A DNA stretch of 64,000 nucleotides, taken from a phage. The stretch's first letter is position 1. Each line of letters opens with the position of its first letter. The position numbers and the translations under genes were made by a program. The notes under the pieces are model-generated. The model had not been told where the DNA came from. It worked only from the letters and a program-made list of their open reading frames with translations, and made no database searches. The stretch lies in the NCBI GenBank assembly GCA_036253495.1, contig GCA_036253495.1_4125.1; one strand, 5' to 3'. This document shows positions 10,025 through 46,529 of this stretch, piece by piece.

Positions 10025-10987
10025 GTGAAGAAACTAGACTTAAACGCAATTTCCGAAGAAGTACTGGATGAATGTTTTGCGAATGAAGAAGTCAATCCAT
10101 TGGAAGCAATTGAACCATCAGAAGTTATTGAAGATGATATTCCACATAAAGTTCGTAGTAAAAGTAACATTAGTCTCAAGCGTCCAGTAGGTGTGACTAA
10201 TGAATCCATCATCGAAGAGATTCGTGCTGGAATTAATGTAAAAAAGAACACTGACCTATTACTTCGTTATAACTATGGTATGATCGTTGATGTTGCTTCA
10301 AAGTGTACATGTTATATTCCGTTTGAAGATAAAATTGCATATGGTGTAGAAGGTTTTATGCGAGCACTTAAAACCTTTGATCTTAGTAAGAATGTCAAAT
10401 TCATTACATATGCAACAACGTCCGTTTATATGACTATGTATAATGAAAGTTCAGATGCAAATTACATGGTGTACTTACCACGTTATATGAGCGTTCATAA
10501 CATCCAAGTACGTCGATTTAATGAATCATATCAACGTGAACACGGTAAGCGACCTACACCAGAATTAATCTCTGAGAGTACTGGTATCGAGCTTCAGCAC
10601 GTTAAGAACTGTTTGTTATACCAGAATGCATATACGACTCTTGATGCACAACTGGGTTCAGATTCAGACGGAACCCTTGGGGATATTCTGAGTTCATCTG
10701 CTCGTGATTATAACCTTAATGTTGATAGCATTTGTAATCCATTACGTTATGCAATCACAGAAATCATTGACGAATTGAGTACTAAAGAACGAGAAATTAT
10801 CATGCGTGTTCATGGTCTGGGGGATTACAAAGCAGAAACCCTTCGTGAAATTTCTGATAATGGATATGTTGATGATAAAGGAAACATTGTTAAGTCCCGT
10901 TCATCTGTGCACCGAAAATATAGTGAAGCTATTCAAAAGCTTAAAAAAATAGTACTTGAAAAAGGGTACGAATACGAAGATTTCTAA
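10025..10987 (+). CDS. sigma-70 family RNA polymerase sigma factor
   Basis: Region 2 signature EGFMRALKTFD..KFITYATTSVYMTM matches the conserved sigma70 FD...G..FSTYA pattern; C-terminal region-4-like segment; GTG start after AGGAGA. Confidence 0.8.
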   Translation: MKKLDLNAISEEVLDECFANEEVNPLEAIEPSEVIEDDIPHKVRSKSNISLKRPVGVTNESIIEEIRAGINVKKNTDLLLRYNYGMIVDVASKCTCYIPFEDKIAYGVEGFMRALKTFDLSKNVKFITYATTSVYMTMYNESSDANYMVYLPRYMSVHNIQVRRFNESYQREHGKRPTPELISESTGIELQHVKNCLLYQNAYTTLDAQLGSDSDGTLGDILSSSARDYNLNVDSICNPLRYAITEIIDELSTKEREIIMRVHGLGDYKAETLREISDNGYVDDKGNIVKSRSSVHRKYSEAIQKLKKIVLEKGYEYEDF

Positions 10988-12039: not shown

Positions 12040-12069
12040 TCACCGAATGCAGTGAAGAGGAAATCTAAA

Positions 12070-12864
12070 ATGAGTACTATCGATGAATTGATTCGACGGA
12101 ATTCAAAATATTACCAACCATCAGAAATTGTGGATAATATTACTAAATCTGAGTTTGGACCTAATACTCGCAAACTCATTCATGTAATGTCTCGTGACGG
12201 CTTTAAATGTGATTGTTGTGGTGAATCCAATGTAGTATTCACTTTACATAAGCACAGTACTAAAGAACGTTATAAATTCAGACCTTATGTACTTAAAGGG
12301 AAACGTCTTGTACGCATGACGTTAGACCATAATGTACTGGACTGTCTCCAGGGTGGTAATGATAAAGAGAACATGACTGCACTGTGTGAGGATTGTAATG
12401 CCTTACGCCAGCATAAGTTCGCAGAGTACAGCGAGTTTAAGTACTGGTATCATAATGCAGACCGTTCAATTGAGCCTAATGTAAACTACTGCTTCATTGA
12501 GTACATCAAGAATGCAAAAGATACATACATTCTTAAATCCATGTCTCCGATTACAGTGTTTCCTGAGAATCTATTCAGTACTATGGAGCGTGATTTCAAG
12601 CGTGGTATCATCAATGCATTCAAGCACTTAGACAAAGGTATCAAGCACTTTGATGTTGAATGTTTAAATTCAGGTATGAATCATTTAGTACAAATTTACA
12701 TGAAATCGTTTATAGGTATTGACAGTGCACGACTACCAGTATATAATTACTTTATTGAAAGCGTAGAAGGTGAATCACTTCGTGATTATGGTGAAAGATT
12801 TAATAAGAAAGTTTTCACTGCAATAGCAAATGAGATTCATTACTATAAACCATATGTAATTTAA
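12070..12864 (+). CDS. HNH endonuclease (putative homing endonuclease)
   Basis: CDCCG ... LDHNVLDCLQGGNDKENMTALCEDCN HNH-type motif; ATG 12070 after GAGGA. Confidence 0.65.
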   Translation: MSTIDELIRRNSKYYQPSEIVDNITKSEFGPNTRKLIHVMSRDGFKCDCCGESNVVFTLHKHSTKERYKFRPYVLKGKRLVRMTLDHNVLDCLQGGNDKENMTALCEDCNALRQHKFAEYSEFKYWYHNADRSIEPNVNYCFIEYIKNAKDTYILKSMSPITVFPENLFSTMERDFKRGIINAFKHLDKGIKHFDVECLNSGMNHLVQIYMKSFIGIDSARLPVYNYFIESVEGESLRDYGERFNKKVFTAIANEIHYYKPYVI

Positions 12865-13433: not shown

Positions 13434-13461
13434 TTGACAGAAGATATCAGTACTGTATAAT
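13434..13461 (+). promoter_or_regulatory. sigma70-like promoter
   Basis: TTGACA, 16 bp spacer, TATAAT with upstream CAGTACTG. Confidence 0.55.
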
Positions 13462-26512: not shown

Positions 26513-26597
26513 TAAGTTTATGGAAATTGTTTTAATCGTTGCATTTGTTACATTAGTATGTACTACCATTTAATATATTTTACGAGGATAATGTGAA

Positions 26598-26927
26598 ATG
26601 AAAAAACTACTAACTATTTTAGTACTATCTGCTATTACGTTGACGGCTGGATGTACCGTTAAAAAAGATTTATTCCCTGTTGGTGGAAGTAAAGCTGATG
26701 GTGTTATTAGGCTTGGATACACATTCGACCAGCGATCTGAAATTCCATTAATTGATTTGGAACAGGGATTGTATGTAGCTACTAAACGATGCCAAAAGTG
26801 GGGATATTCAGGTGCTGAAATTTTTGGTGGCTCCACAACAATGTGTTCTGACCAACGTCCACTGGGGTGTGTTGCAACAAATGTCACATATGAATATCAA
26901 TGTACTGGTGACTTAAAAGAAAAATAA
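26598..26927 (+). CDS. putative lipoprotein
   Basis: Signal peptide with LTAGC lipobox-like site. Confidence 0.55.
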   Translation: MKKLLTILVLSAITLTAGCTVKKDLFPVGGSKADGVIRLGYTFDQRSEIPLIDLEQGLYVATKRCQKWGYSGAEIFGGSTTMCSDQRPLGCVATNVTYEYQCTGDLKEK

Positions 26928-26935
26928 TCTTTTAC

Positions 26936-26968
26936 ATGGGTTGACTTCGTTCAGCCCTTTTTGCTATA
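26936..26968 (+). terminator. terminator hairpin overlapping promoter -35
   Basis: GGGTTGACTTCGTTCAGCCC, T-run, TATAAT. Confidence 0.65.
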
Positions 26969-26998
26969 ATTATTTCATCAAGACGAGAGGATGAATAC

Positions 26999-27436
26999 AT
27001 GACCCGCATTAACTTAGTACACGTTAAAGAACTTGCTGACCAACATCTGATGGCTGAATATCGTGAACTTCCACGTGTATTTGGTGCTGTACAAAAACAT
27101 GTTCAAGCACGTAAGCGTGTACGTGATTTCAAAATTAACAGTACTTATCTGTTAGGTTCAGGTCATGTAACATTCTTCTACGACAAGTTACTATACTTAC
27201 AGAAGCGTCATATTGATATTGTTAACGAATGTTTGCGTCGTGGTATGAAGATTCAAAACACTGAAGTAAACGACATTAGCGGCTTCCCTGCTGAGTTTTG
27301 TAATGACTACGTACCATCGGAGTCCGAGATTAAAACATCACGCGAGCGTTTGATTGAGAAGCTTCAGATGAAGCCTAAGTGGTATAAGTTTACTGATGTT
27401 GAGCTACCTATATATTATGTTGATATGATACAATGA
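26999..27436 (+). CDS. denV: pyrimidine dimer DNA glycosylase (T4 endonuclease V homolog)
   Basis: N-terminus [30 protein letters not shown]...KRVRDFKI and HVTFFYDKL closely match T4 EndoV as recalled from memory. Confidence 0.88.
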
Positions 27437-27660
27437 ATGATGAAGAATTCAAAAAATATGCGATTGCGAAGCTTGATTCATACAAGTCACGCGAAACGTA
27501 TAAATTTAATCCTGATAAAACAAAAGCATCTATAAGATGGATGATTAATTCACCCAAATATACATTTGACGAAAAATATTCATGGATAGTGCAATGTAGT
27601 GATTATGAGGATTTGGTATATAATATTAAACTGTGTTGGTATGAATACAACAATAAATGA
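27433..27660 (+). CDS. hypothetical small protein
   Basis: 75 aa, ATGA overlap. Confidence 0.5.
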
Positions 27661-27666
27661 TATAAG

Positions 27667-27699
27667 GGGTTGACTTCGGTCAGCCCTTTTTGCTATAAT
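27667..27699 (+). terminator. terminator hairpin overlapping promoter -35
   Basis: GGTTGAC-TTCG-GTCAGCC, T-run, TATAAT. Confidence 0.7.
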
Positions 27700-27725: not shown

Positions 27726-27965
27726 ATGAAACTATCTTTTATACGTTTAGCAGAATTCTTCGGTACTGATATAATTACTTTACAACAAATTGCAGACAAT
27801 ACTTCATTAAGCACACAAGAAGTACTTGACTTAGATGTGATAGAGTGTGATAATACTTCTATCGATTATAAAGAAGGTCTTGTCGAAAAAGATAAGATTC
27901 AGGCTAAGATTAATGGTGCTGGACGGGTTCAGTACTGGAAAGGGGTTTTAAGTAATGCGTGTTGA
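27726..27965 (+). CDS. hypothetical small protein
   Basis: 79 aa ORF. Confidence 0.5.
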   Translation: MKLSFIRLAEFFGTDIITLQQIADNTSLSTQEVLDLDVIECDNTSIDYKEGLVEKDKIQAKINGAGRVQYWKGVLSNAC

Positions 27966-29289
27966 TATTAAAGTACCTTTTAAATGTGAACCACTGAAAT
28001 TTGTCCAAGATTATGAAATATCTAAAACTATCGAATTTAGTGAAACCGCTTCAAAACTTGATATTAGTAGGAAAATTTTAGGTGAAAAGTATCCAGATGT
28101 AATATGGGATGATTTCAATCCATATAATATGGAAAAAGATGAAATGTGTAAAGACGAAATTATTGGCTTTGTTCGTATGGGAGTTCAAAATCTAAAATAT
28201 TATGCATATATATGTCAAAAATGCTCGACAAATTCAAAACAAAATGGTTTAGGTATATTTTTTACATTAAAAAGATATATTAAAAATAAAATTACATGTA
28301 TGTGCTCAAAAACACCACTATATACAAATTATCAACGAACTATACAACTTCATAATAAATCTATAAGTTTAGGTTATGTGTTTATTGGATATAATAAAGA
28401 AAAACAAATAACTTCGGATGCTAAAATAAAACTAGGATGTTATAATCATGGTATGTGGGATACTATAACAATAAATTCGTATAACACCAACTCACGCGGC
28501 TGTTCAAAATGTGCTGGTGTTCATTCACCATCACAGGAAGAAGCAAATGAAAAAATAAAACAAATTTGTAATGAAAATAAATTAGTATTTCAACCTTTCC
28601 TATATAAAAATAATAAAACTAAAATTTTTGTAAGATGTTTGGTATGTAATGAATCATGGGAGTCAAACTATTTTAAACTTTATACCATGAAATATGGTTG
28701 CCAACGTTGTGTAGGAACAAAAAAGTTAACTACTGAGATTTCTACAGGAATTGTATCAGATTATTGTACAAAATATAAGTTGACTTTCATTCCATTTGTG
28801 TATGATAATAATAAGATGAAAATATCTCTACGTTGTGATATTTGTTCACATGAATGGATAACACCATTCAATGGTATTACTAATAGAATGGGGTGTCCAA
28901 GATGTAATCCAACTGAAGCAATACGTATTTCTAAAGATTTAGATCCATTAATAGATGATTTTCAGCCGGAAAAGAAATTCCTTGAACTTGGAAAGATGCG
29001 ATTTGATAGATTCAGTCAACGATTAAACATTCTGTTTGAATATGATGGGGAACAACACTTTATTTCCAATAGGGTTTGGCATTCTACTACATCTAAGTTT
29101 GAATCTTCTCGTGAACGTGACAGTATAAAAACAGAATACGCAATAAAAAATGGATATAACTTCATTCGTATTGCGTATTATGAAGACCATATTGGAGCAT
29201 TGAAATCTTTCCTTAAACTCATTGAAGAGAATCCAGGAAAGCAAATCGTACAGATCTATGGTGATGTTCAAATCTTAGACAAGAAATAA
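27955..29289 (+). CDS. zinc-ribbon-repeat protein with C-terminal nuclease-like domain
   Basis: Repeated C..C pairs (CQKCS, CSKCAG, CLVCNE..GCQRC, CDICSH..GCPRC); C-terminal FEYDGEQHF..R..D..K..G..IRI motif. Confidence 0.5.
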   Translation: MRVDIKVPFKCEPLKFVQDYEISKTIEFSETASKLDISRKILGEKYPDVIWDDFNPYNMEKDEMCKDEIIGFVRMGVQNLKYYAYICQKCSTNSKQNGLGIFFTLKRYIKNKITCMCSKTPLYTNYQRTIQLHNKSISLGYVFIGYNKEKQITSDAKIKLGCYNHGMWDTITINSYNTNSRGCSKCAGVHSPSQEEANEKIKQICNENKLVFQPFLYKNNKTKIFVRCLVCNESWESNYFKLYTMKYGCQRCVGTKKLTTEISTGIVSDYCTKYKLTFIPFVYDNNKMKISLRCDICSHEWITPFNGITNRMGCPRCNPTEAIRISKDLDPLIDDFQPEKKFLELGKMRFDRFSQRLNILFEYDGEQHFISNRVWHSTTSKFESSRERDSIKTEYAIKNGYNFIRIAYYEDHIGALKSFLKLIEENPGKQIVQIYGDVQILDKK

Positions 29290-29299
29290 CAATACAAAA

Positions 29300-29332
29300 G
29301 GGTTGACTTCGGTCAGCCCTTTTTGCTATAAT
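29300..29332 (+). terminator. terminator hairpin overlapping promoter -35
   Basis: GGTTGAC-TTCG-GTCAGCC, T-run, TATAAT. Confidence 0.7.
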
Positions 29333-30131: not shown

Positions 30132-30350
30132 TTGATAACATATAACATCGATAAGGTCATGTTATTATATGCATGTATTAACATGATTGTCGTTTTAGTT
30201 AAAGTTTATAGATGGTTTCATACACTTGATATTGATACTGAAAAGGAGTATAATCCTCAAGAAGCACCACTGGGTTTAAAAGTTATTGTTTTAATTACTG
30301 TAGTGTCTGTATACATGGTATTACTATCAACTATGATTAAGTTCACTTAA
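30132..30350 (+). CDS. small membrane protein (tandem array 1/8)
   Basis: 72 aa hydrophobic. Confidence 0.5.
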   Translation: MITYNIDKVMLLYACINMIVVLVKVYRWFHTLDIDTEKEYNPQEAPLGLKVIVLITVVSVYMVLLSTMIKFT

Positions 30351-33407: not shown

Positions 33408-36400
33408 TTATTTGTGTTTTATGTGTAAAGTGTCTAATATTGTATTGAACAATGATTTAGCAGAAATCATGATTACTTGATCAAAATCTTTAGTATAAGA
33501 AATATTAGCAGTACTGGAAGAATCTTTCACCTCATCCGGTAATGCATCAAACTCTTCTTTTTCCATAATCTTTTCAAGTTCTTCACGAGAAATGGCTTTT
33601 ACGTTTTCAATAGTCCTTAGTTGTATATTATAATCTTTATAATACGAAACTAAGTTCGTTGCGTATGAACCATCTTTAGATGCTGTGCCAGTAAAATCAT
33701 AACATCCTGTATCAGTACTAACCCAATCGATTTTCCCTGAACTACCACTATATACACCTTTGTTAAATTTAATATTAACAACATCGCCAATAGTTTTCAA
33801 TATACCACCTTTACATTCATTAAATGCGTTTAATTGATAACTTGTAGTCATATAGAATTTCGGTTCTAATGTAACAGTATCACCTACAGTTGCTTTCATA
33901 TCAGAAACACTTAAGAACAATTCATTAAATCCTTTTGAATAAGTCTTGGTAATTGTTGTCCCATCCCTGTTAGTTACTGTGTATTCTAAGTCCAATTCAC
34001 AAATACTATTCAATGATAAGTAAGGGATATCAAATTTATCAGTACTAGCATCATAAGGACATCTTGAGGATGGTAGTATACCAGTAGGGTTTGGTACGTA
34101 TTGAACTTTTGTTAACTCATACCCGCTTGCATTCGCTGGTGTAACTGTAATAGACGGTGTAGATATTCCTTTCATTCCACAGAAGTATATGTTATCTGGA
34201 AAATCATTTATTACGAAGTCAGTGACAGGAATATCATAAGTATCTTTATCAGTCCAATTAAGAACAACATTAGAACTGGTTGGATCAACAATATGTTCAC
34301 TAGAACCACAGAAATATACTGATTTGGTATTAGTAATCATTAGTAATGTTTTGGATGATGAGTTCAATTCAAGAACATCTTTCACTTCAAGACCAGATGG
34401 TAATGTCAATGGTAACTTCGTGAATGATGTTAAATCTTGTTCATCTTTAACACCACTAGTCCCCGCCGGAAACTTACCTGAACCATAGAAAACACCTTTA
34501 TTCGTCATGAAATACATGAACGGGGTTGATGTTCCTTTGTCAAATAGTTTAATGTCATCACATGTTAAACCATCAGGTAAACTTACTTTAGATGGAGTTC
34601 TATAAACACCAGGCTTAATACCACCTTCACCATTACTTACATCACCTAGTACATATAAATCTTTACCTAGTTTTAAGAACATTGATTTATTTTTAGCACA
34701 CAAGAATGTATCATATGATTTATCATCAATTGGTAGCTTGGTATACTCGGTGTATGTATGTATTGAATCATCAATCCACGAACTATCACCACTAATGTAA
34801 ATGTGATTGTTTCTGTCAATATAATATGAATACACATCAGTACTGTTCATATATAAAGCATTTAGTGCATTTGTTTTCACTAAGTGATTGAACTTAAGAA
34901 CTTGTTTTCCATCGTACTTATGGGAGTTGACACCAATATCACCATTCAGGCTACTACCAAATGAATATATGTGACCACGTGGTAATAGAACTTGAACACC
35001 ACTTTTGGTTAAATTATATTTGGAGTGCAAGAGATCGTTATATACAACTCTAACTTTCTTAAAGATATCAGTACATTCAATCCACGATTTAGATGGTGTA
35101 CCATCCATTCCTATTATTGCTGGATCACCATAATAATAAGCTTTATTTTCATATGATATTTTAAAAGATGATTTACCATCTTTTGTATTAGCACTGAAAT
35201 ACACATCTTTACTATCTTTAATTGGATAAGTACTATTCTCTACAAAAGTATTATATGAGATATCGTTGTTAGCACTATTAAGAACAAAAGAAGTAGATGT
35301 ACTATTGGACTTATAGACTGCTACGGAAGATGTATCACTGAAATCAATTTTAGTGAACGTATCTTTGTATGTTTCGTTTAATAATCCTACATAAAAAACA
35401 TCAGTGCCATCAGTAACGAATATAGCATTTCTATTATTACATAAAGAAGTAATATTTTTTACTACTTTATTTGAATTATAGTTCGGTAACTTCTTTAATC
35501 CACGAACAAAATTATCACAAATAATACCAGTACCATAGAAGTTATAATCTTTATCACAGTATATAAATGCTGTATCATATGGTGAAGTACTTAAATTCTT
35601 ATAGAATGGGAATGGAGTGAATGTGAATTGTAGAACATTACGCAATTCCCCTACTGTCTCTGTTGGGAATTGTCTGTTTTTATTATTTCCAAGAAAAACA
35701 ACTCTATCTGTTAGGTATGTGTACATAATTCCATATGGTTTTACGTACAAGTCATTATATCCTAATGATAATTTAGTTGGTGATGTTAGTGGACCGGAAT
35801 TTATTTTATTTTGGTTAAAAGAAAATTCATTTGAATTATAACCAGCCCCATATGTATTACCATCAGTACTTAAATAATATACAGTAGCTTCCCCTGCTCC
35901 AAGAAAAGTCTTTACATCAGTTGCTAACGTTTTTTTGAAAGTTGGATAAAATTTATTATATGTTCCCGTTCCCATCATCAGTTCACCATTGCGGTTATGA
36001 CCACGAGCATATAGAATACCTTTGTCTGTATCTAAGAAGAACATTCCATTATATGTTTTGTAAATCTTACCTTTTGTAATATCGAAATTGGAAAAATCAT
36101 CACTAATATCAATGAATATTGTCTCAAGGTTATCTTCAAGGGAGTTTAGAGATTTACCACAATACCATACTGAGTTATCTTTTTTAACAGCAACACAACC
36201 ACACGGACTGGCATCAAAATATGTTACATCGGAAAGAACCAGTGATAAGTTCTTTGTACTGCAATAGTTATCCATTGCATATAAATCGGAATCTTTAAGT
36301 ATATATACGGAATTCCCAACCGCTTTAATCGAATTTATCATGTTTATATCCTCATAAATTGATACCAATTCTAATGTATTTACCCACTTAAAGTACAAAA

Positions 36401-36431
36401 AATGATCAATTAAATGGGGAATCTTTAACAA
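33408..36431 (-). CDS. large RCC1-like repeat protein (putative adhesin; N-terminus uncertain)
   Basis: 1007 aa; GHNRNGELMMGTG and GSSLNGDIGVNS repeat signatures; last gene of the minus-strand cassette. Confidence 0.65.
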   Translation of the reverse strand: MLKIPHLIDHFLYFKWVNTLELVSIYEDINMINSIKAVGNSVYILKDSDLYAMDNYCSTKNLSLVLSDVTYFDASPCGCVAVKKDNSVWYCGKSLNSLEDNLETIFIDISDDFSNFDITKGKIYKTYNGMFFLDTDKGILYARGHNRNGELMMGTGTYNKFYPTFKKTLATDVKTFLGAGEATVYYLSTDGNTYGAGYNSNEFSFNQNKINSGPLTSPTKLSLGYNDLYVKPYGIMYTYLTDRVVFLGNNKNRQFPTETVGELRNVLQFTFTPFPFYKNLSTSPYDTAFIYCDKDYNFYGTGIICDNFVRGLKKLPNYNSNKVVKNITSLCNNRNAIFVTDGTDVFYVGLLNETYKDTFTKIDFSDTSSVAVYKSNSTSTSFVLNSANNDISYNTFVENSTYPIKDSKDVYFSANTKDGKSSFKISYENKAYYYGDPAIIGMDGTPSKSWIECTDIFKKVRVVYNDLLHSKYNLTKSGVQVLLPRGHIYSFGSSLNGDIGVNSHKYDGKQVLKFNHLVKTNALNALYMNSTDVYSYYIDRNNHIYISGDSSWIDDSIHTYTEYTKLPIDDKSYDTFLCAKNKSMFLKLGKDLYVLGDVSNGEGGIKPGVYRTPSKVSLPDGLTCDDIKLFDKGTSTPFMYFMTNKGVFYGSGKFPAGTSGVKDEQDLTSFTKLPLTLPSGLEVKDVLELNSSSKTLLMITNTKSVYFCGSSEHIVDPTSSNVVLNWTDKDTYDIPVTDFVINDFPDNIYFCGMKGISTPSITVTPANASGYELTKVQYVPNPTGILPSSRCPYDASTDKFDIPYLSLNSICELDLEYTVTNRDGTTITKTYSKGFNELFLSVSDMKATVGDTVTLEPKFYMTTSYQLNAFNECKGGILKTIGDVVNIKFNKGVYSGSSGKIDWVSTDTGCYDFTGTASKDGSYATNLVSYYKDYNIQLRTIENVKAISREELEKIMEKEEFDALPDEVKDSSSTANISYTKDFDQVIMISAKSLFNTILDTLHIKHK

Positions 36432-36561
36432 ATGAATTCATGATGTACTTGATGAATTGCCCATACCAACGGATTCCCCAGTCCCAGCATACCACATGGT
36501 ATTATCGAACTTTTTTATAATTGTAGTATCATAACCACACCAAACATCATCAACATTAGTA

Positions 36562-37914
36562 TTACAACAATTGTATTTCTGTGAGTGTTTGATATGTTGT
36601 ACCGTTGTACACACCTCTCCAATATACCCTACCTTCAGTACTAACCACTAATAGTCCATATGTTGTAAACCCAAGAGTACCACCAACATACATAGCATCT
36701 TTAATTCGAATACCAATGTCTTCATATGTAAATGAAGCGACTGCTCCCGCTTGCCACGAAGGACTAGCGTAGTAATCACTATAAACACCATGTGCTTTAT
36801 ATATTGATGTTGTTCCTGGTTCAAAAATTACAGTTCCACAGTAGTTCATTCGTATTTTAGTACTGGATGAAGTCGGTACATTTATACCTATGCCATCTTT
36901 TATCCCTGTCGTTAGGACGTTAAAACCACCCGCCACACGGTTGACGTCATTCGCACCGATTAAAAACATACCAACGTTGTATCCCATATAATATACACTA
37001 CTACTTCCATTCCAGAAAGAAAAACCACCACCATTACCACAGCGATATAGTTGTGAATTTGAGCAGTACATCATACCTTCGTTTGTCGCATCAAATTCAT
37101 CTGCTGTTCCTATTGTAGCTACAGTAGTCCACGTTTTAATCACTTGGTTTGTACTAGCTGGTGTTTGTATACCATATCGTATATTATATCCCTTACCAAC
37201 GATTGTACCATCTTCTAATTTAGCATAAAGTACAGGTCTATTACCAACAAAATACATATTATTGTGTGACATGTCTATTGTGCATCTTAATGAAACTACT
37301 TTTTGTGTCAATTGATTATCTTTAGTAAAAGAAGTAAAGTAGTAATCCGATGTTGAGTTGTTTATTAAACCTTGTATTGACAATCCCATATACCAGATTT
37401 CACCATTGCTGTTTAATGCTGCCAAAATACAACTATATTTTGAAGTGTATGCTGGTGATGTTGTTGAAGTTGCTGGTCCTTTATCATATCCACCACAGAA
37501 TACCATCTCCACAACTTCACCTACGTTCGAAAAATAAGAAGATACATTGATAAAACCATTTGTTATAAAAGGTGCTGTATTCATACTTGAATGTGTGAAT
37601 ATCCCATTTGCATATACACCACAAAAATGATATGAACCATCATTATCTTGGACTATTATTCCATTTGATAGTAACCAAAAATTGTTTACATTTTTTCTTA
37701 CTAATTCAACTCCTGCACCATTGGTTGGTGTTATACCAAAAGAAACATATTTTGTTTGACCAATACCATATAAATTTCCATTAGTTGCTAGTATTGCACC
37801 AAACCAGTTCCCACCACCATTCCTATCATGACCCATACCAATGGAGTCGAATTTCTTTACAGTAGGAACTTCAACTTTATTCCCATAATCCAACATTCTT
37901 ACAAAAGGTAACAT
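36562..37914 (-). CDS. RCC1-like propeller paralog 1 (putative receptor-binding protein)
   Basis: Start reassigned to MLPFVRMLDYGN after AAAGGAGG RBS; G-N-G-x-L-G repeats. Confidence 0.7.
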   Translation of the reverse strand: MLPFVRMLDYGNKVEVPTVKKFDSIGMGHDRNGGGNWFGAILATNGNLYGIGQTKYVSFGITPTNGAGVELVRKNVNNFWLLSNGIIVQDNDGSYHFCGVYANGIFTHSSMNTAPFITNGFINVSSYFSNVGEVVEMVFCGGYDKGPATSTTSPAYTSKYSCILAALNSNGEIWYMGLSIQGLINNSTSDYYFTSFTKDNQLTQKVVSLRCTIDMSHNNMYFVGNRPVLYAKLEDGTIVGKGYNIRYGIQTPASTNQVIKTWTTVATIGTADEFDATNEGMMYCSNSQLYRCGNGGGFSFWNGSSSVYYMGYNVGMFLIGANDVNRVAGGFNVLTTGIKDGIGINVPTSSSTKIRMNYCGTVIFEPGTTSIYKAHGVYSDYYASPSWQAGAVASFTYEDIGIRIKDAMYVGGTLGFTTYGLLVVSTEGRVYWRGVYNGTTYQTLTEIQLL

Positions 37915-37985
37915 ATATCCTCCTTTATTCATTATATTATATTTAATCAAAAAAGAAAAGCCAGTACAGAGTACTGGCATTTAAA
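37915..37985 (-). promoter_or_regulatory. conserved inter-paralog module
   Basis: Hairpin GCCAGTACTCTGTACTGGC + T-run, then GATTAAATATAATATAATGAATAAAGGAGG. Confidence 0.6.
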
Positions 37986-37989
37986 ATAA

Positions 37990-39165
37990 TCAAAATGTAG
38001 GAAGTTTGAATTCTCTCATAACAGATGAACTGCTTGCAGATACATTATCTGGTGATTTCCCTGCGTAGTATAATTTATTATCAATGAACATATACAATGT
38101 TGCATCATTTCCTGCTACAAGTGATTCACTTTTCTTAAATTTAACACCACTAGGTAAAATTGCTTCAACAAATGAACCTGATTCTCTTGTAGTATTATTT
38201 GCCAATTGACCATTGTTATTATAACCAGTACTATAAATTTTACCTGAACTATAATATACGAGTCCACGAGTACTAGTGTTTTCTATTCGAATGAATTCAC
38301 TATCATCTGGAACTGTCGTTGATAGTACTGGGTTTAACTTATAAGCAGATGATACATTATTATTACCCAATTGACCATAACCTTGAAAGCCTAGTGTATA
38401 CATAGGACATGATTCTGGTGTACCTTTTGTTATAATACCAATATAATTCACACTACAAAAAATGTCTATTACTTCTGTAATAGGTGTACCCTTATATTGA
38501 ACCCAAGGGAATACATACGATTGTTGCTTACCATTTCCCAAAGTACCGGAAGTTGTTGTCCCAGTACGCCACATTGTATCATCAAGTTTAATAATCCAGT
38601 TAGCTGTCGTTATCGATGAACAGAATTTTTTAACATTATCCACTAAAAATGTAAATTGATTATAATATGATGCAGTGTTTATACCAAACTTAGCACCAGT
38701 ATTATCACCTAACAAATATAAACTATTATCTGTACCTAAAATCAAAGCATAATCATAACCCACGTATATATCTTTAATTCTTGAAATTCCAAATTGTGTA
38801 AAATAGCTTGTACATTCTGTGAATGTTGTTATATTATTGGTTGTATTATTACCTAGCCATTTATCTAAACCACTATAAAAGAATCTATCATCATTTGTGC
38901 GTATTAGACAAAAAGCGTTCATTGTACTGCACCAAAAATCTTTAACATTGCTATATATTTTTGTCCATTCAGTTACTGCATTAGTATGACCTAAACCAAA
39001 AATTCCACCATTCTGAAGACCAATAGCCCATATTGAACCATTTTTATCAAGCATCATTGTACATGTATGTGAATAACCACCCGATGGTGTAACTAATTTA
39101 ACAAAATTGGGAATATATGGTAAAACTTTATTTCCATAATCCAACATTCTAACAAAAGGTAACAT
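37990..39165 (-). CDS. RCC1-like propeller paralog 2
   Basis: N-terminus MLPFVRMLDYGN; GYGQLGNN and GYNNNGQLANN repeats. Confidence 0.7.
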   Translation of the reverse strand: MLPFVRMLDYGNKVLPYIPNFVKLVTPSGGYSHTCTMMLDKNGSIWAIGLQNGGIFGLGHTNAVTEWTKIYSNVKDFWCSTMNAFCLIRTNDDRFFYSGLDKWLGNNTTNNITTFTECTSYFTQFGISRIKDIYVGYDYALILGTDNSLYLLGDNTGAKFGINTASYYNQFTFLVDNVKKFCSSITTANWIIKLDDTMWRTGTTTSGTLGNGKQQSYVFPWVQYKGTPITEVIDIFCSVNYIGIITKGTPESCPMYTLGFQGYGQLGNNNVSSAYKLNPVLSTTVPDDSEFIRIENTSTRGLVYYSSGKIYSTGYNNNGQLANNTTRESGSFVEAILPSGVKFKKSESLVAGNDATLYMFIDNKLYYAGKSPDNVSASSSSVMREFKLPTF

Positions 39166-39236
39166 AATTCCTCCTTTATTCATTATACTATATTTAATCA
39201 AAAAAGAAATGCCAGCATCGAGTACTGGCATTATTG
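39166..39236 (-). promoter_or_regulatory. conserved inter-paralog module
   Basis: Same hairpin/T-run/TATAAT/RBS block. Confidence 0.6.
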
Positions 39237-40424
39237 TTATAGTTGTCTTGGTGTATCAAGTACATATCTATTTGTACTAGGACCACCATCATCATACGTT
39301 CCGGTTGAATAGATATTTTTCATATCAGTTAGAAATGTACGATACGAACCTCTATATATTTTTATTTTATCATACATAGAATATGTTATTTGTGCTGGCA
39401 GTGGACATGCAGTAAATTTACCAATAGTAACATTAGAACCAACACCCAACGAACCAGCATAACTACTCGCATTTAAACCAGTTGCATATACACCAGTACT
39501 CGTAACTAGTATACTAGATTGTGTTGGGTATCCAGTATGGATTGAATACAAAGTTCCAGTTGGTAGAGTAGTACTATTATTTCCTAATACTGCTAGTGCT
39601 GTACTAGTCGTAGTGTTATTACCCCATGCACCATTACTAGCTAAACCACCCACAAGGAACTGTCGTGCTCCTGTACTTGGATTTTCAACTAAAGCACTGA
39701 CCGCACCACTTGAACAACCAGTATATTGTAATGTTTTTGTATATGTTGTACTTGGCTGATATAAAGTATATTCATTATAGGGAGTCCATGTAGTACTGGA
39801 ACTTATACCGGATGTACCACCACCAATATATAAATTATTTTGTGTATCAAAAAACATTACACAGTTATTTGTTGACTGTATTTGTGCAATATCAACATTA
39901 GGTGTGACAGCTTTTACAAATGATCCATCTGTTATTTGTTGAGTTTGTCCAGTACCATCAGCGAATTGTCTACCCCCACTCCAACCAGTACTCCATATTG
40001 TATTATTATCCATTAAGAAAGTAAACCACGTAGTACCTGCATACATCTGTTTAATTGAAGTACTTGAACTTTGTGTGTACAAATTTTCAATATATTGGTT
40101 ATAACTTAAAAATGATGTAGTACTAGTTTCTAAACCAATATGACTACCATATCCACAATAAAAATAATTTAAGTCATTATCTTGTACTAACAAAGTTCCT
40201 TGTGTCACCCAGCAATCTTTGACATTTTCTCTAATTAATGTCCATGATCTTAGTGCATTATTATTTCCTCTCCCAAATTTTCCAAAACTATTACTTCCTC
40301 GTGCGTATAGTTGACCATCAGTATAAAGTACAACAACATCAGTATCAGTTGGTATTATTTTCTTAATTTGAAGTGGAATAGGTACAATATTTCCATAATC
40401 AAACATTCTAACAAAAGGTAACAT
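39237..40424 (-). CDS. RCC1-like propeller paralog 3
   Basis: N-terminus MLPFVRMFDYGN; GSNSFGKFGRGNNN repeat. Confidence 0.7.
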   Translation of the reverse strand: MLPFVRMFDYGNIVPIPLQIKKIIPTDTDVVVLYTDGQLYARGSNSFGKFGRGNNNALRSWTLIRENVKDCWVTQGTLLVQDNDLNYFYCGYGSHIGLETSTTSFLSYNQYIENLYTQSSSTSIKQMYAGTTWFTFLMDNNTIWSTGWSGGRQFADGTGQTQQITDGSFVKAVTPNVDIAQIQSTNNCVMFFDTQNNLYIGGGTSGISSSTTWTPYNEYTLYQPSTTYTKTLQYTGCSSGAVSALVENPSTGARQFLVGGLASNGAWGNNTTTSTALAVLGNNSTTLPTGTLYSIHTGYPTQSSILVTSTGVYATGLNASSYAGSLGVGSNVTIGKFTACPLPAQITYSMYDKIKIYRGSYRTFLTDMKNIYSTGTYDDGGPSTNRYVLDTPRQL

Positions 40425-40494
40425 AATTCCTCCTTTATTCATTATATTATATTTAATCCAAATAAGAAAGCCAGTATCAAGTACTGGCCTATAT
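40425..40494 (-). promoter_or_regulatory. conserved inter-paralog module
   Basis: Same block, hairpin GCCAGTACTTGATACTGGC. Confidence 0.6.
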
Positions 40495-41664
40495 TTAAAC
40501 TGGTGAATCTAATACAAATTCTAAACTACTAATGCCACCATATGTGACATTTGTCCCTGTGCTATATACAAAATTACCATCAGTTATATAAGTTCGGTTA
40601 TACCCACCTGCCATCTGCGACTTACTATAATCAAACCCATCAGGAACGATTGCTTTGGTATATACTAATGCATTATTAGATGTACCAATACCTAACATAC
40701 CAGCTCCTGAAGATTTATTGTAGCCGCAACAATATATACCATCTGTTGTAGCAATAACTTGGTTATAATATGAAGTAATGTTAGCAATGCTTACTACATC
40801 ACCGGGTGGCATTAGTGAAGCAGTTTGAACCTCAAATGCTCTATAATCACTGAGAGAACCATTTATCCCATCTGCTTGTGCACCAAATATTCTCGAACCG
40901 CCATTTGCGATGATGGTTTTACCAGTGGGATCAGTACCAATTGCCATTGCCATTGAAGTACTATTCTCCATATAGTACTTGATATTAATTGTATTTCTTA
41001 AGCTGGTAGGAGCACCATAATATATAGTATATAACTTACCTCCTGAACTTGTAACTGCATTTACTCTTCCTGTATAAAATAGCCATCCTTGGTTTGTAAC
41101 ATAACCGTGCATTAAATTACTTGCAAACAATTTAACAGGTAATTGATCTGCTGCGGTCGGAACAGTACTTTTGACGAATTTTCTAGCAACATTGTTAGTT
41201 GTTGTCCCATCACCCAACTGACCATCACCCCCTGCTCCAGTACTCCATATTGTTTGGTCTGTTAGTAATACACTTGTAGTCTGATAACTAACTGCTATAT
41301 CTAATATTGGTAATGTTAACGTATCGAATGTTGGCATAGCAGAAGTCCATATTGATACTGCTGCCCCTGGCATACCAACAGTTGTTGAACTTCCACTGTA
41401 CCATATTTCATCATTGCTTTTCTTAATAACTATCGACGTGGCTCCCATCCAAAAATCTTGAACATCAGAAGTGCTAAAAGTCCATGTAGTAACAATATTT
41501 TTGTGACCTAAACCCAAAAGACCATTTGTATTCTCACCACGCACATATAAATCACCACTGTTTGTTAAAACAGCAACATTATAGTTGTTAGCTAGTATTT
41601 TTTTAATATTTGGTTTAGCAGGTGCAATATTCCCATACTCTAACATTCTTACAAAAGGTAACAT
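40495..41664 (-). CDS. RCC1-like propeller paralog 4
   Basis: N-terminus MLPFVRMLEYGN; GDGQLGDGTT and GAGMLGIGTS repeats. Confidence 0.7.
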   Translation of the reverse strand: MLPFVRMLEYGNIAPAKPNIKKILANNYNVAVLTNSGDLYVRGENTNGLLGLGHKNIVTTWTFSTSDVQDFWMGATSIVIKKSNDEIWYSGSSTTVGMPGAAVSIWTSAMPTFDTLTLPILDIAVSYQTTSVLLTDQTIWSTGAGGDGQLGDGTTTNNVARKFVKSTVPTAADQLPVKLFASNLMHGYVTNQGWLFYTGRVNAVTSSGGKLYTIYYGAPTSLRNTINIKYYMENSTSMAMAIGTDPTGKTIIANGGSRIFGAQADGINGSLSDYRAFEVQTASLMPPGDVVSIANITSYYNQVIATTDGIYCCGYNKSSGAGMLGIGTSNNALVYTKAIVPDGFDYSKSQMAGGYNRTYITDGNFVYSTGTNVTYGGISSLEFVLDSPV

Positions 41665-41734
41665 AATTCCTCCTTTATTCATTATATTATATTTAATCCA
41701 AATAAGAAAGCCAGTATCAAGTACTGGCTTTAAT
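41665..41734 (-). promoter_or_regulatory. conserved inter-paralog module
   Basis: Same block. Confidence 0.6.
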
Positions 41735-42883
41735 TCATTGTATAAATGACATATCAACTTCGGTATATCTTGTAGTGTACTGCCCAGAACTTCCACCCAT
41801 TACTAGATTGGAAAAACCAGTATAAAATAACTTACCTTCATCTGTGAGAATCAAACTACCGATGTTATTCAGTACTAAACTGTAAGAACTATTAAAATTA
41901 GCATAGGACTGGGTATAATAGAACTGATTTGTAAGATTACCAACACCCAATTGTCCACCAGTGTTAACCCCAGTTGCAAATATCGTAGTACCAAATCTGC
42001 GAATATGTGAGGCCATATTGCCGACGCAACAATGTACATTCTGAACATCCGAATTCAATAAAGTTGGTGTTGTGTATTGCTTAAGTGTTGTGCCTGTACC
42101 GAATTCATTACCATATGATACCCCATACTGTGTACCACAAGCGTACAATTTATTATCATCTTTAATAAAAAATGTACTCTGATAACTTACATCGACATCT
42201 ATAACATTAGTCTGTATTCTAACAACTCCAGTACTAGCAGTTTGATTGCCTGTCCCTAACTGATAGTAAGTGTTAATACCACAACCCCATAATGTATTAT
42301 CTTCTTTTAGGTATATGTTACCAACAGCTTTTTTTACCGATGATATGGCTTCAATCTTAACAAAGGCGTTAAATGAATTTGTATTTGTGCCATTACCAAA
42401 AGATGATCTGGTTGATGTGCTGTTTGTTCCGCAGCAATATAAAGTACCATCAGTTGTTATCAAATTCACTTTAAGATCACTGTAACTACTCATGTATTTT
42501 ATATCAGAAACATTAATACCACTGGATGTTATCCATGAAGTACAATCTGTCCACGTGTTATAATATGCACCTGAACCAGAAAACGCACTCGGACTTCCAG
42601 TTATAAACACTTTTCCAGTACCGTCTTCTTCATATAATTGACAACCACTACTGTTATTTTCCAAAAGGACTCTTTTAACATTAGTCGCACTAAGAATAAA
42701 TTTACTCGACGCTACACCAGTTCCAGTACCCTGACTGACTGCCGCTGATGCATACAAATTTTTCGTGTATGTATCATGAAAATACATAGCACTACCGCCG
42801 GAATATATTTTAAAACGTGTACTAGGATCAGGCGGGTTAGGTGCAATATTCCCATAATCTAACATTCTTACAAAAGGTAACAT
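41735..42883 (-). CDS. RCC1-like propeller paralog 5
   Basis: N-terminus MLPFVRMLDYGN; YYQLGTGNQ and GGQLGVGN repeats; closest paralog of 45279..46427. Confidence 0.7.
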   Translation of the reverse strand: MLPFVRMLDYGNIAPNPPDPSTRFKIYSGGSAMYFHDTYTKNLYASAAVSQGTGTGVASSKFILSATNVKRVLLENNSSGCQLYEEDGTGKVFITGSPSAFSGSGAYYNTWTDCTSWITSSGINVSDIKYMSSYSDLKVNLITTDGTLYCCGTNSTSTRSSFGNGTNTNSFNAFVKIEAISSVKKAVGNIYLKEDNTLWGCGINTYYQLGTGNQTASTGVVRIQTNVIDVDVSYQSTFFIKDDNKLYACGTQYGVSYGNEFGTGTTLKQYTTPTLLNSDVQNVHCCVGNMASHIRRFGTTIFATGVNTGGQLGVGNLTNQFYYTQSYANFNSSYSLVLNNIGSLILTDEGKLFYTGFSNLVMGGSSGQYTTRYTEVDMSFIQ

Positions 42884-42954
42884 AATTCCTCCTTTATTCA
42901 TTATACTATATTTAATACAAAAAAGAAAAGCCAGTATCAAGTACTGGCATTATG
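42884..42954 (-). promoter_or_regulatory. conserved inter-paralog module
   Basis: Same block. Confidence 0.6.
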
Positions 42955-44064
42955 TTATTTTGGTAAATCAATTTTAGTAAAGACTGCAACATCCTCGCTT
43001 GCACCGGGAATGGCGTAATACGTTCCAGTACTATATACATCTCCATTTTTGGTTAATATTGAAGTCAAACCATCACTAAAAAGAACATCCCTAATCTCAC
43101 TAACTTCAACGGGTAATTGTAAATTTGTAGCACTATATATAGCACCAGTTTGAGAATTGTTTAATCCCAAACCACGGTTCGCCCCAACACCCTTCTGATA
43201 TGTACTGGTAATTACCATTTGTGTAGCAGTATTTAATGCAGGTGAATTCGTCATAAACAACGGAGAACTATTAGGAAAAGTACTTGCAGGAACTGCACGG
43301 AATGTAGTCGTGCCTGAACTAAGAAAGTTTGGAGTTTGACCACATACGAAATATGATGTACCATTATAGTAATTAAATGCATTACCACCAATGGCTGCAT
43401 CGATTACACCAGAACTACGTAATCCCCAAGTGTTAATTTGTGTTTGGTCCCCTGTACCATGCTGCCCACTGCTATTCCATCCAGAACTATATAGCTTATT
43501 ATCTAATGTAATATACATACTATCATTTGCATTAGTCATTACTTTACGCACGTTAGTAGCACATTGAGTTAATGTGTAAATCGATGATGAGCCAATACCT
43601 AAAGAACCACGATATCCATTATCTCCTGCACCATAGAGTACTGAACTAGTGCTAAGTACAAATATTAAACCATTTGTACATACAATATTAGCAATTTCAC
43701 TCACTGGTATAGCATTGGTAAACCAATTAGTCCTTTCAACTAATATAGTACTGTAAGAAGTAGTTGTAGAAGATGAGAACCAGTACGTTTCACCCGATGT
43801 CCATATCGTATTATCATTTTTAATAATAACAAGTGTACGACCACCCACGAAAAAATTAGAAACATCTGAACTTACTAATATCCATGAAGATACCGTGTTG
43901 TTATTACCATTTCCAGATTCACCACCTTGATTTCTACCTATGTAATATAAATCATGTGAATCAGTCAATAAGAATTGACCCTGTGTAGAAGCACCAACTT
44001 TAATTATATTTTTAGGACCGGGTGTAATATTTCCATAATCAAACATTCTAACAAAAGGTAACAT
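42955..44064 (-). CDS. RCC1-like propeller paralog 6
   Basis: N-terminus MLPFVRMFDYGN; GWNSSGQHGTGDQ repeat; coupled to upstream gene with only an RBS between. Confidence 0.7.
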   Translation of the reverse strand: MLPFVRMFDYGNITPGPKNIIKVGASTQGQFLLTDSHDLYYIGRNQGGESGNGNNNTVSSWILVSSDVSNFFVGGRTLVIIKNDNTIWTSGETYWFSSSTTTSYSTILVERTNWFTNAIPVSEIANIVCTNGLIFVLSTSSVLYGAGDNGYRGSLGIGSSSIYTLTQCATNVRKVMTNANDSMYITLDNKLYSSGWNSSGQHGTGDQTQINTWGLRSSGVIDAAIGGNAFNYYNGTSYFVCGQTPNFLSSGTTTFRAVPASTFPNSSPLFMTNSPALNTATQMVITSTYQKGVGANRGLGLNNSQTGAIYSATNLQLPVEVSEIRDVLFSDGLTSILTKNGDVYSTGTYYAIPGASEDVAVFTKIDLPK

Positions 44065-44074
44065 ATTTCCCTCC

Positions 44075-45205
44075 TTAATTTAATAATGCCCCTGGCAAAT
44101 CCACTTTGACGAATTGTGCATATGCTGAGGAATTTTGATCAAAGTTTGGTCCCAATCCATAAAATGAGCTAATGCCGTCTTCATTTGTGTATATGATATA
44201 AACGTTCTTTACATCATTTCCGCATATAAATCGAATGTCTTTCGTTTGTGTTCCCGCTGGAACATTACGAAGGTTAACAACGCCATTACTTGCATTGTTA
44301 TCAGCCGACGCAATTGGTAATTGATTTTGATCATATTGACCACGCATATTTTTTGCATCTAAACCAAACACAGTATTTGATACCGCACCAACTTTCAAAA
44401 ATGAACCAAAACTATTATTGAATGACTTTGGAAATTTACCACTATAAACACTTCTCCCATCTGATAATACCGCTGAACTGAATGCCCCGCTATTCGATAT
44501 GGCAAATTCATTGTAAGGAAGTGTACCCATTTTGGTATATACAGAATATGAATTAGTGGAAGTATTATCAATAATCTTATTACCATTATATCCAATACCA
44601 TACTGGTATCCGTCTGCATCTTGAACTATACACAAAGGACCACTTGGGGTTTGTGTCAACGAAACAACACGTTCAACTTGTATATCACCAAATGTATTTC
44701 TTCGCCATGTTCTATCTATTATAGTACTAGTATTACCCAAAGATAATGCCACACTATATAATAGATTGTTTTCAGTAAAAATGGCAACATAATATGGGTG
44801 GTTAATAACTTGCTTCATCCCAGCATCAATAACTTCCTGTGGAATATGATCAGTAACATCCAACCAATCAAGGTTAGATGATGCAATATCTGGAGTACTG
44901 AATTTGTCAAATCTAGTTGAGCCACAAACTAGCACTCTATCATCATTTGTCAAAGCCACTGTGCTAGTCTGCATATTAGAACTGAATGATTTAACATTAC
45001 TAATGTTAGACTTGTACCAACCCTTATCAGCAGCACCCACCGTGAATCCGGTTCCCATTGATCCACTTGTACTTGTACCATAAGCCCACATCTCACCACT
45101 ATATGTTAGTGCCATACAGTGGCTTCCATTTGCTTGGAAATCCTTTATACCAGTGGGAGCAACCACTGTATTCCCATAATTAAACATTCTAACAAAAGGT
45201 AACAT
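44075..45205 (-). CDS. RCC1-like propeller paralog 7 (more divergent)
   Basis: N-terminus MLPFVRMFNYGN; RBS GGAGGG. Confidence 0.65.
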   Translation of the reverse strand: MLPFVRMFNYGNTVVAPTGIKDFQANGSHCMALTYSGEMWAYGTSTSGSMGTGFTVGAADKGWYKSNISNVKSFSSNMQTSTVALTNDDRVLVCGSTRFDKFSTPDIASSNLDWLDVTDHIPQEVIDAGMKQVINHPYYVAIFTENNLLYSVALSLGNTSTIIDRTWRRNTFGDIQVERVVSLTQTPSGPLCIVQDADGYQYGIGYNGNKIIDNTSTNSYSVYTKMGTLPYNEFAISNSGAFSSAVLSDGRSVYSGKFPKSFNNSFGSFLKVGAVSNTVFGLDAKNMRGQYDQNQLPIASADNNASNGVVNLRNVPAGTQTKDIRFICGNDVKNVYIIYTNEDGISSFYGLGPNFDQNSSAYAQFVKVDLPGALLN

Positions 45206-45278
45206 ATTTCCCTCCTTTATTCATTATACTATATTTAATCAAAAATAAAAGCCAGTACTTGAGTACTGGCATATTAAT
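45206..45278 (-). promoter_or_regulatory. conserved inter-paralog module
   Basis: Same block, hairpin GCCAGTACTCAAGTACTGGC. Confidence 0.6.
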
Positions 45279-46427
45279 TCATTGTATAAATGACATATCT
45301 ACTTCTGTATAATTAAGAACGTTCTGTCCAGAAATACCACCCATTACTACTATTGCAATGCCACAATAATATAATTTTCCAGTATCCGTAAGTATAAGTG
45401 ATCCAGATGGACTGCGTACCAAATTACAAGAGGTATTAAACGAAGTATATGAAGGAGTATAGGAGTACTGATTAATATTATTACCAACACCTAATTGACC
45501 AGACGAGTTGCTTCCAGATGCATAAAGTACTTCATCACCTTTAACTATATGTGATGCCATGTTACCAACACAAGTATATAAACTATAAACACCTGCACTC
45601 AATAATGTGGGAGTTTTATATTGTATATCAGTAGAAGAGGAAGTACCACCTGTACCAAATTCGTTCCCATATTGTGCACCGAACTGTTTACCACAAGCGT
45701 ACAAATTATTATCCGATTTGATAAAAAATGTACTCTGATAACTTACATTAAAATCTATAACATCCGAAGAAATCATCGTCACCCCAGTAATAGAAGTTTG
45801 ATTACCCGTGCCCAACTGGTAGTAATAGTTAAAACCACAACCCCATAAAGTATTATCTTCTCGCAAATAAATGTTACCAACTGCCTTTTTAACCGAAGTT
45901 ATAGTATCTACTCTTTTGAATGTGTTAAAAGAATTAATGTTTGTACCATCACCAAATGATGATATGTTCGATATATTGTTAGCTCCACAACAATACAATG
46001 TACCATCGTTTGTTATCAAATTCACCTTCATATCATAAAAACTACTCATGTATTTTATATCAGAAACATTAATACCACTTGATGTTATCCACGTAGTACA
46101 GTCCGTCCACAAAGTTTTTCTATCAGTTACACCAGTGAATGCCTTCGTGTTACCAGTGATAAAAACTTTTCCAGTACCTTTCTCTTCATACAATTGACAA
46201 TCACTACTGTTATCTTCCAATAGAACTCGTTTAACATTCTCCGCACAAAGAATAAATTTACTCGATGCTACACCTGTACCAGTACCCCAATTCGTCGCAG
46301 AAGATGCATACAACTTATCAGTATAAGTATCATGAAGATACATGGAATCACTGGAATATATTTTAAAACGTCCATCATCACCAGGGGCAATATTCCCATA
46401 ATCAAACAATCTAACAAAAGGTAACAT
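45279..46427 (-). CDS. RCC1-like propeller paralog 8
   Basis: N-terminus MLPFVRLFDYGN; strong similarity to 41735..42883 along its length. Confidence 0.7.
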   Translation of the reverse strand: MLPFVRLFDYGNIAPGDDGRFKIYSSDSMYLHDTYTDKLYASSATNWGTGTGVASSKFILCAENVKRVLLEDNSSDCQLYEEKGTGKVFITGNTKAFTGVTDRKTLWTDCTTWITSSGINVSDIKYMSSFYDMKVNLITNDGTLYCCGANNISNISSFGDGTNINSFNTFKRVDTITSVKKAVGNIYLREDNTLWGCGFNYYYQLGTGNQTSITGVTMISSDVIDFNVSYQSTFFIKSDNNLYACGKQFGAQYGNEFGTGGTSSSTDIQYKTPTLLSAGVYSLYTCVGNMASHIVKGDEVLYASGSNSSGQLGVGNNINQYSYTPSYTSFNTSCNLVRSPSGSLILTDTGKLYYCGIAIVVMGGISGQNVLNYTEVDMSFIQ

Positions 46428-46529
46428 AATTCCTCCTTTATTCATTATAATATATTTAATCAAAAAAGAAAACCCTTGACACCCTTTCAGTACTGATGTA
46501 CTATATGAGAAATCTAAGGAGAATCGTAC
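46428..46529. promoter_or_regulatory. divergent promoter region between the two cassettes
   Basis: Minus side carries the TATAAT-rich motif and RBS for paralog 8; plus side has TTGACA (46475) and AAGGAG before ATG 46530. Confidence 0.5.

Follow-up and report, generated by a model that had tools for sequence, protein, structure and literature searches.

The locus considered here lies on the + strand of a 64,000-nucleotide stretch of phage DNA (the window) and comprises denV, a short ORF that overlaps its stop codon, a hairpin-and-promoter module on either side of this pair, and neighbouring genes that differ between related phages. The features are as follows.

26598-26927, + strand: YecR-family lipoprotein gene, 109 aa (Pfam PF13992, 77.6 bits)
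26938..26970, + strand: module upstream of denV, with a hairpin (GGGTTGA-CTTCGT-TCAGCCC, 26938-26957), a T5 run and a predicted promoter
26985..26991, + strand: Shine-Dalgarno sequence GAGAGGA, read from the sequence, 7 nt 5' of the denV ATG
26999..27436, + strand: denV, 145 aa, predicted pyrimidine-dimer DNA glycosylase / AP lyase of the T4 endonuclease V family
27403..27655, + strand: replaceable segment, holding the last ~11 denV codons and the 75-aa ORF, delimited from blastn breakpoints, gene tables and the C-terminal alignment
27433..27660, + strand: 75-aa ORF, its ATG overlapping the denV stop (ATGA, 27433-27436)
27664..27699, + strand: next module, with a UUCG-tetraloop hairpin, a T5 run and TTGACT-18-TATAAT (-16.3 kcal/mol, z = -4.2)
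27955-29289, + strand: 444-aa homing-endonuclease-like gene; its repeats are of the treble-clef zinc-finger and CapR-homology types, and its PHROG matches are to endonuclease, HNH and homing-endonuclease families

The denV product: homology, active site and fold

The similarity between the window DenV and T4 endonuclease V (also called DenV or T4-pdg, and represented by structures 2END, 1VAS and 2FCC) is far beyond chance. A phmmer search of PDB chains returns T4 endonuclease V with E = 9.8e-54, the alignment spanning residues 1-132 in each protein and the entries for that enzyme (2END, 1ENI, 1ENJ, 1ENK, 2FCC and 1VAS) being the sole sequence matches, and the protein also matches Pfam PF03013 (Pyr_excise; 55.3 bits, where the gathering cut-off is 23) and PHROG 1183 ('endonuclease V N-glycosylase UV repair enzyme') with E = 4e-59. 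An earlier, sequence-only reading of the locus had proposed that the ORF closely resembles the N-terminal catalytic region of T4 DenV and is close to it in length. Both proposals hold, with PF03013 and PHROG 1183 in agreement with the match to residues 1-132 (rounded, E = 1e-53), and with the difference in length (145 as opposed to 138 aa) accounted for by another, longer C-terminal tail.

In T4 endonuclease V the initiator Met is removed, exposing Thr2, whose alpha-amine is the nucleophile; Glu23 is the catalytic acid, and a cluster of Arg and Lys residues binds DNA. We aligned the window protein with T4 DenV and 120 database homologues, giving 122 sequences, one of which is gapped at positions 1-16. 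T2, R3, H16, E20, R22, E23, R26, R117 and Y129 are all present in the query and are invariant wherever the column is covered; M1, T2 and R3 form the N-terminus in 121 of the 122 sequences, the remaining one having its gap there, and E23, which aligns with E23 of T4, is carried by every sequence (122/122). All five members of the DNA-binding set (Arg3, Arg22, Arg26, Arg117 and Lys121) are kept in the window protein, K121 being shared with 119/122 aligned DenVs, and the window protein has W128, as do 94/122 of the alignment, the others having F there. The alignment to T4 DenV that had been suggested as a check thus finds both Thr2 and Glu23 within a significant similarity, and the identification as a UV-repair DenV homologue gains from the other key residues that are kept and from the predicted fold, which agrees with it.

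Because the nucleophile is the N-terminal amine, DenV must begin at MTR. On inspection of the ORF, an in-frame stop precedes the denV ATG in the window with no other start codon between the two, which makes an earlier in-frame start impossible. Two public annotations of other phages place the start elsewhere: 16 codons 5' of the conserved MTRIN in Salmonella phage KFSST3 (253-756 of its own locus), and 6 codons 3' of MTRIN in Vibrio phage phi-Grn1 (319-723 of its own locus). With the amine of an N-terminal Thr2 as nucleophile, MTRIN is almost certainly where both proteins begin. DenV offers a clean example of enzyme chemistry fixing the true start codon, with two public phage records mis-started.

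An AlphaFold2 model of the window DenV, built from a 40-sequence alignment, has a mean pLDDT of 93.8. When this model was compared with the PDB by Foldseek, the T4 endonuclease V structures were the only significant matches (TM 0.88/0.93, rmsd 0.8-2.0 Å), with TM 0.88/0.93 and rmsd 1.3 Å against 2END, and the predicted core superposes on the T4 structures at 0.8-1.3 Å. The model accordingly shows one compact domain, entirely alpha-helical and folded like T4 endonuclease V, and a short extra helix is predicted at 138-144 in the tail.

It is at the C-terminus that the proteins differ. The aromatic segment WYKYY of T4 (128-132) reads WYKFT in the window DenV, with W128, Y129 and K130 kept and the changes Y131F and Y132T; WYK[FY]T is found throughout the jumbo-phage DenV clade, and position 131 is Y, F, H or W even in T4-like phages. 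The jumbo-phage DenVs have in common the C-terminal signature WYK[FY]T..(P).YY and a length of 144-147 aa. Among close Asteriusvirus relatives the C-terminal part varies in length (145, 158 and 171 aa, the longer forms being acidic-tailed), and Salmonella phage SD-2_S15 carries a 242-aa fusion; all four forms part company just past WYKFTDVE. Substrate affinity could, given these C-terminal differences, depart from that of the T4 enzyme.

One might go further and regard the protein as a relic that retains the DenV fold but has lost its dimer-glycosylase activity or been put to another use, such as DNA binding or AP-lyase action of a general kind, and the altered aromatic motif, the lineage-specific tail and the unstable tail length of close relatives would all be in favour of this. 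We consider it highly improbable, because the catalytic and phosphate-binding residues are all kept, and are invariant or nearly so across the homologues, because the predicted core superposes so closely on that of T4, and because an identity of about 65% across genera implies purifying selection. The window DenV is almost certainly an active endonuclease V of the T4 type, as predicted from its conserved residues. By analogy with the T4 enzyme, the initiator Met would be taken off and the free alpha-amino group of Thr2 would attack C1' of the 5' pyrimidine in a cyclobutane dimer; with the help of Glu23 a Schiff base would form, and beta-elimination would nick the strand, leaving the repair to be completed by the AP endonuclease, Pol I and ligase of the host; the expected outcome is a raised UV survival of the phage DNA.

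Phage identity and the history of denV

The window DenV is 100% identical to A4_222, annotated 'endonuclease V', of Escherichia phage A4 (ON286972, Asteriusvirus, 355 kb), and positions 15000-39000 of the window have 98.9% identity to A4 across 93% of their length. The window therefore comes from a jumbo coliphage of the 121Q/PBECO4 type and, as far as its sequence identifies it, the source phage is an Asteriusvirus (121Q/PBECO4-like) nearly identical to A4. A second A4 gene labelled 'endonuclease V', A4_227 (= window 30132..30350), was rejected as another denV (BLASTP against DenV, E = 1.0; no PHROG match), the public record having probably mislabelled it; the equivalent in the window (30132-30350, + strand) encodes a 72-aa hydrophobic protein.

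In all four Asteriusvirus loci that we compared (the window, A4, 121Q and G17) denV occupies the same position, being gp217 in 121Q (PBI_121Q_217) and G17_00096 in G17, in both cases downstream of gp212-215 homologues. DenV homologues that share the C-terminal signature occur in CBB, GAP32, the Erwinia phages pEa_SNUABM_49 and Kaldavass, RaK2, K64-1, Muenster, KP13-7 and Xanthomonas XbC2, and every other Rak2-like genus sampled has a DenV homologue. The window protein is 90-96% identical to the other Asteriusvirus copies and 66-70% identical to the CBB copy and to the DenVs on two 361-371 kb contigs, and identities between Rak2-like genera are about 65-70%. In CBB the gene is CBB_519, described as UV repair endonuclease V, and it lies in the presumed early region CBB_390-546, which is rich in RpoD-like promoters (PMC5259590). 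The patchy distribution in phages that the first reading had ascribed to the gene does not apply within the Rak2-like lineage, where denV is syntenic in the four Asteriusvirus loci and has homologues in all other genera sampled. Judged from these comparisons, denV is a long-standing resident of the Rak2-like jumbo-phage lineage and not a recent gain. Its identification as such adds little: this is an ordinary repair gene, the identical protein is already annotated in GenBank in phage A4, and DenV family members have appeared in the gene lists of Rak2-like jumbo phages from RaK2, GAP32 and CBB onwards.

The relationship to the T4 protein is less ordinary. The window DenV and T4 DenV are 61% identical globally, and 66% in their BLASTP alignment, which spans 90% of the query, as compared with 34-37% between the window DenV and those of RB43, one Aeromonas T4-like phage, one KVP40-like Vibrio phage and one Kuttervirus, and with 38.5% between T4 and RB43. 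A neighbour-joining tree of 21 sequences (a 140-aa protein, 200 bootstraps) recovers a T-even-like enterobacterial clade (195/200) and a jumbo-phage clade (153/200), and places the two together against RB43, Aeromonas, Vibrio and Kuttervirus in 197/200 bootstraps. The jumbo-phage proteins form a clade of their own, and none is nested in the T-even clade. For the core proteins gp43, gp44 and gp41, CBB and T4 share only 25-30% identity (PMC5259590). With 61% identity in DenV set against 25-30% in the core proteins, the DenV tree therefore disagrees with the relationships of the core genes. This incongruence is most simply read as a lateral exchange of denV, of early date, between ancestral phages of the Rak2-like and of the enterobacterial T-even groups, which may have run in either direction. 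The alternative is that strong purifying selection acted in these two lineages while the gene was replaced in the RB43, Aeromonas and Vibrio phages. If the exchange is accepted, then a similarity between jumbo and T-even DenVs that is about twice that of the published core proteins makes a tidy case for exchange between unrelated lytic phages that share hosts.

A recent event is another matter. Transfer from T4 in recent times is rejected on the distribution of denV and on the clade structure, and we give very little credence to the broader proposal that denV is a recently acquired, self-contained mobile cassette from a T4-like coliphage: its place in a hyperplastic early region between repeated modules, and an identity to T4 DenV (61-66%) well above that of the CBB core proteins, speak for it, but the gene holds the same position in the four loci and has homologues throughout the other sampled Rak2-like genera, the jumbo proteins constitute a separate clade with a shared C-terminal signature, and denV matches its surroundings in composition. 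Its GC content (~39%) is the same as that of the neighbouring genes, and a comparison of GC with the surroundings found no compositional anomaly at denV.

Modules, expression and mosaicism around denV

The modules on either side of the denV unit are copies of one design, in which a GGGTTGAC-TTCG-GTCAGCCC hairpin is followed by a T5 run and is combined with a sigma-70-type promoter, the -35 element TTGACT lying within the 5' arm of the stem and an 18-nt spacer leading to the extended -10 element TGcTATAAT. The motif TTGACTTCGNTCAGCCCTTTTTGCTATAAT has five copies in the window at ≤3 mismatches (0 in 100 shuffles), all on the + strand, at 19785, 24075, 26941, 27670 and 29303, and a shorter version of the motif finds eight. 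All module copies are intergenic. TTGACT-18-TATAAT with the TG (11/12 match) is present at 26941-26970, 27670-27699 and 29303-29332, and the hairpins range from -10.2 to -17.6 kcal/mol (z -3.1 to -5.5), with 0/200 shuffles folding as well. In the module upstream of denV the -35 element is at 26941-26946, in the 5' arm, and the -10 element, 18 nt further on, at 26965-26970; the putative promoter matches at 11/12 positions with the TG present, and the site was also scored as terminator-like. Its hairpin is the weakest copy (-10.2 kcal/mol, z = -3.1), having lost through a G>T change the base pair that closes the loop in its sisters, and for this weakness some read-through from the upstream operon into denV is possible. 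A terminator-like site inside denV (27276-27294) was set aside as a chance match, the scan having given 4 sites where 2.9 were expected.

The 75-aa ORF found no match in Pfam and PHROG searches; it is identical in A4 and has 43-49% identity to its counterparts in four other Asteriusvirus genomes. Given the overlapping ATGA, it is probably translationally coupled to denV and co-transcribed with it, and we infer that the module at 27664..27699 closes the denV-orf75 unit and opens the following one. The early reading had denV flanked by terminator/promoter modules as a self-contained cassette. Both modules are real, as judged by the five copies where none were expected and by their stable hairpins, and they do bound a unit; the downstream one, however, sits past a second ORF, and what is bounded is not denV alone but a pair of overlapping genes.

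Sites of the form TTGAC-N-TAnAAT number 25 on the + strand of the window and 2 on the - strand, an excess that fits an early region read by the host RNA polymerase, as proposed for CBB. In such a region denV would probably be read early by host sigma-70 RNA polymerase from the promoter set in the hairpin/T-run terminator module, and denV and the 75-aa ORF would form one transcript that stops at the next module. A second and commoner class of near-consensus promoters has no hairpin and consists of TTGACA preceded by an A-rich tract, a stretch of 16-17 nt that frequently has GTACTG at its end, and TATAAT; examples on the + strand are at 13434, 25023, 50991, 62446, 63035, 63371 and 63942. The same early region also holds an RpoD-like sigma-factor fragment or homologue (10025-10987, + strand; PHROG 351, 2e-50) and an HNH endonuclease (12052-12864, + strand; PHROG 35175, 2e-148). 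Opposite in direction to the early block, nine consecutive ORFs of 369-1007 aa occupy 33408-46463 on the - strand, and a scan of five of them gave, each time, a match to PHROG 4219 ('regulator of chromosome condensation', RCC1-like repeats). Structured RNAs and tRNAs were searched for, with none within the window.

Taking these lines together, we read the locus as an Asteriusvirus denV that encodes a predicted dimer glycosylase/AP lyase, is probably driven, along with the 75-aa ORF, from a hairpin-promoter module, and is an old resident of its lineage that may bear the mark of an ancient lateral exchange; to this explanation as a whole we assign a probability of roughly 0.9.

The resident gene has neighbours that are much less settled. 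In blastn comparisons of the window with A4, G17 and 121Q, homology to all three breaks at 26517, the stop codon of a 123-aa ORF, and is back at 26938, precisely where the module upstream of denV starts. The 420 nt in between (26518-26937) are found only in the window and carry the YecR-like gene; the slot is empty in A4 and holds an unrelated 89-aa gene (gp216) in 121Q and G17. The best phage matches of the YecR-like protein have 41% (Synechococcus phages) and 30% (Bordetella BPP-1 Bbp28) identity, with no other phage in the collection above 41% at the amino-acid level. Direct capture from E. coli is not supported, the sole E. coli DNA match being 119 nt at 74% to one yecR. The gene looks like cargo unique to the window phage, possibly with a surface or exclusion function.

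A second slot begins within denV. Homology to 121Q and G17 ends at 27402 (denV codon ~135) and is back at 27656, 8 nt 5' of the next hairpin and 11 nt 5' of its GGG core, and in those two phages the counterpart of the segment 27403..27655 consists of the end of a 171-aa DenV, whose tail is longer and acidic, followed by gp218 and gp219. The third variable slot runs from 27958 to about 29290, where the window has 444 aa, A4 565, 121Q 487 and G17 372, and ends at the module at 29296 (breakpoints 29286-29296). The 444-aa gene, with a GC content of 25-29% as against ~36% nearby, is likely a free-standing selfish gene of the homing-endonuclease type. The breakpoints at 26938, 27656 and 29286-29296 are thus at or within ~11 nt of modules, and those at 26517, 27402 and 27958 are away from modules, at or inside coding sequences; the modules mark most sites at which neighbouring genes are swapped between related phages. 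To have called this an accessory gene block was fair, in that the neighbouring slots are mosaic and, among the matches listed, the Asteriusvirus genomes other than A4 match only 20-24% of the surrounding 24 kb by megablast.

Comparison with known systems

The window DenV and T4 endonuclease V have an identical N-terminus (MTRINL), 61% global identity, Thr2, Arg3, Arg22, Glu23, Arg26, Arg117, Lys121, Trp128 and Tyr129 in both, and an all-alpha fold, which for the window protein is that of the model. They differ in their endings, T4 closing with WYKYYGKAIYA and the window protein with another sequence that makes it 7 aa longer. The DenVs of Rak2-like phages, among them A4_222, PBI_121Q_217, G17_00096, CBB_519, the RaK2 denV product and the 'DenV-like UV repair enzyme' of K64-1, belong to the same annotated family, and those of Asteriusvirus agree with the window copy in locus and in the lineage-specific C-terminal signature. 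Within this genus the difference lies downstream, in that 121Q and G17 have the 171-aa acidic-tailed DenV and then gp218 and gp219, whereas the window and A4 have the 145-aa DenV and then the 75-aa ORF. The denV of RB51, a T-even phage, is flanked by e (lysozyme) and by a gene for an internal protein, and is preceded by an early promoter of the T4 type without a hairpin; in contrast, the window denV lies in a jumbo-phage early block behind a consensus sigma-70 promoter that is embedded in a hairpin.

The closest parallel to the modules is the promoter-early stem-loop (PeSL) of T4-type phages, for which we draw on Arbiol 2010 (PMC2839356) and Comeau 2014 (PMC4122927). PeSLs combine a sigma-70 promoter with a stem-loop and lie in hyperplastic regions, at the junctions of indels and replacements (PMC2839356); experiments on RB49 and phi1 showed that they start and terminate transcription and that recombination between them yields mini-circles (PMC2839356). 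In nt-1/KVP40-type PeSLs the stem has the consensus A3-4G3-loop-C3T3-4 (PMC4122927), which the window stem AAAAGGG...CCCTTTTT fits. Like PeSLs, the window modules unite a near-consensus sigma-70 promoter and a stem-loop in one intergenic element ahead of a Shine-Dalgarno sequence and start codon, are present in several copies (5-8 in the window), and lie in a hyperplastic region at the boundaries of replacements between close relatives. Unlike PeSLs, they belong to a Rak2-like jumbo phage, outside Straboviridae, and their activity here is a prediction. A literature search for PeSLs in Rak2-like phages found no paper describing them and a single mention, in a reference list.

When one module was used as a blastn query, it was found in 5-8 places per Asteriusvirus genome and in eight copies in CBB, as well as in Erwinia, Serratia and Yersinia jumbo phages, and 48-nt matches of 92% identity were found in Vibrio Schizotequatrovirus genomes. 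The denV of Klebsiella phage KP13-7 (Alcyoneusvirus), too, has a module directly 5' of it, identical to the Asteriusvirus one, even though DenVs of different Rak2-like genera are no more than about 65-70% identical. It is conceivable, at somewhat less than even odds in our estimation, that Rak2-like phages shuffle their early genes with cassettes of the T4-type PeSL, and that modules shared in this way provided the route by which denV passed between the T-even and jumbo phages. The PeSL-type modules, the YecR-like insertion and the incongruence of DenV remain mildly interesting variations on published themes, the first of them in that modules resembling the PeSLs of T4-type phages appear, from their build and placement, to work outside Straboviridae as well.
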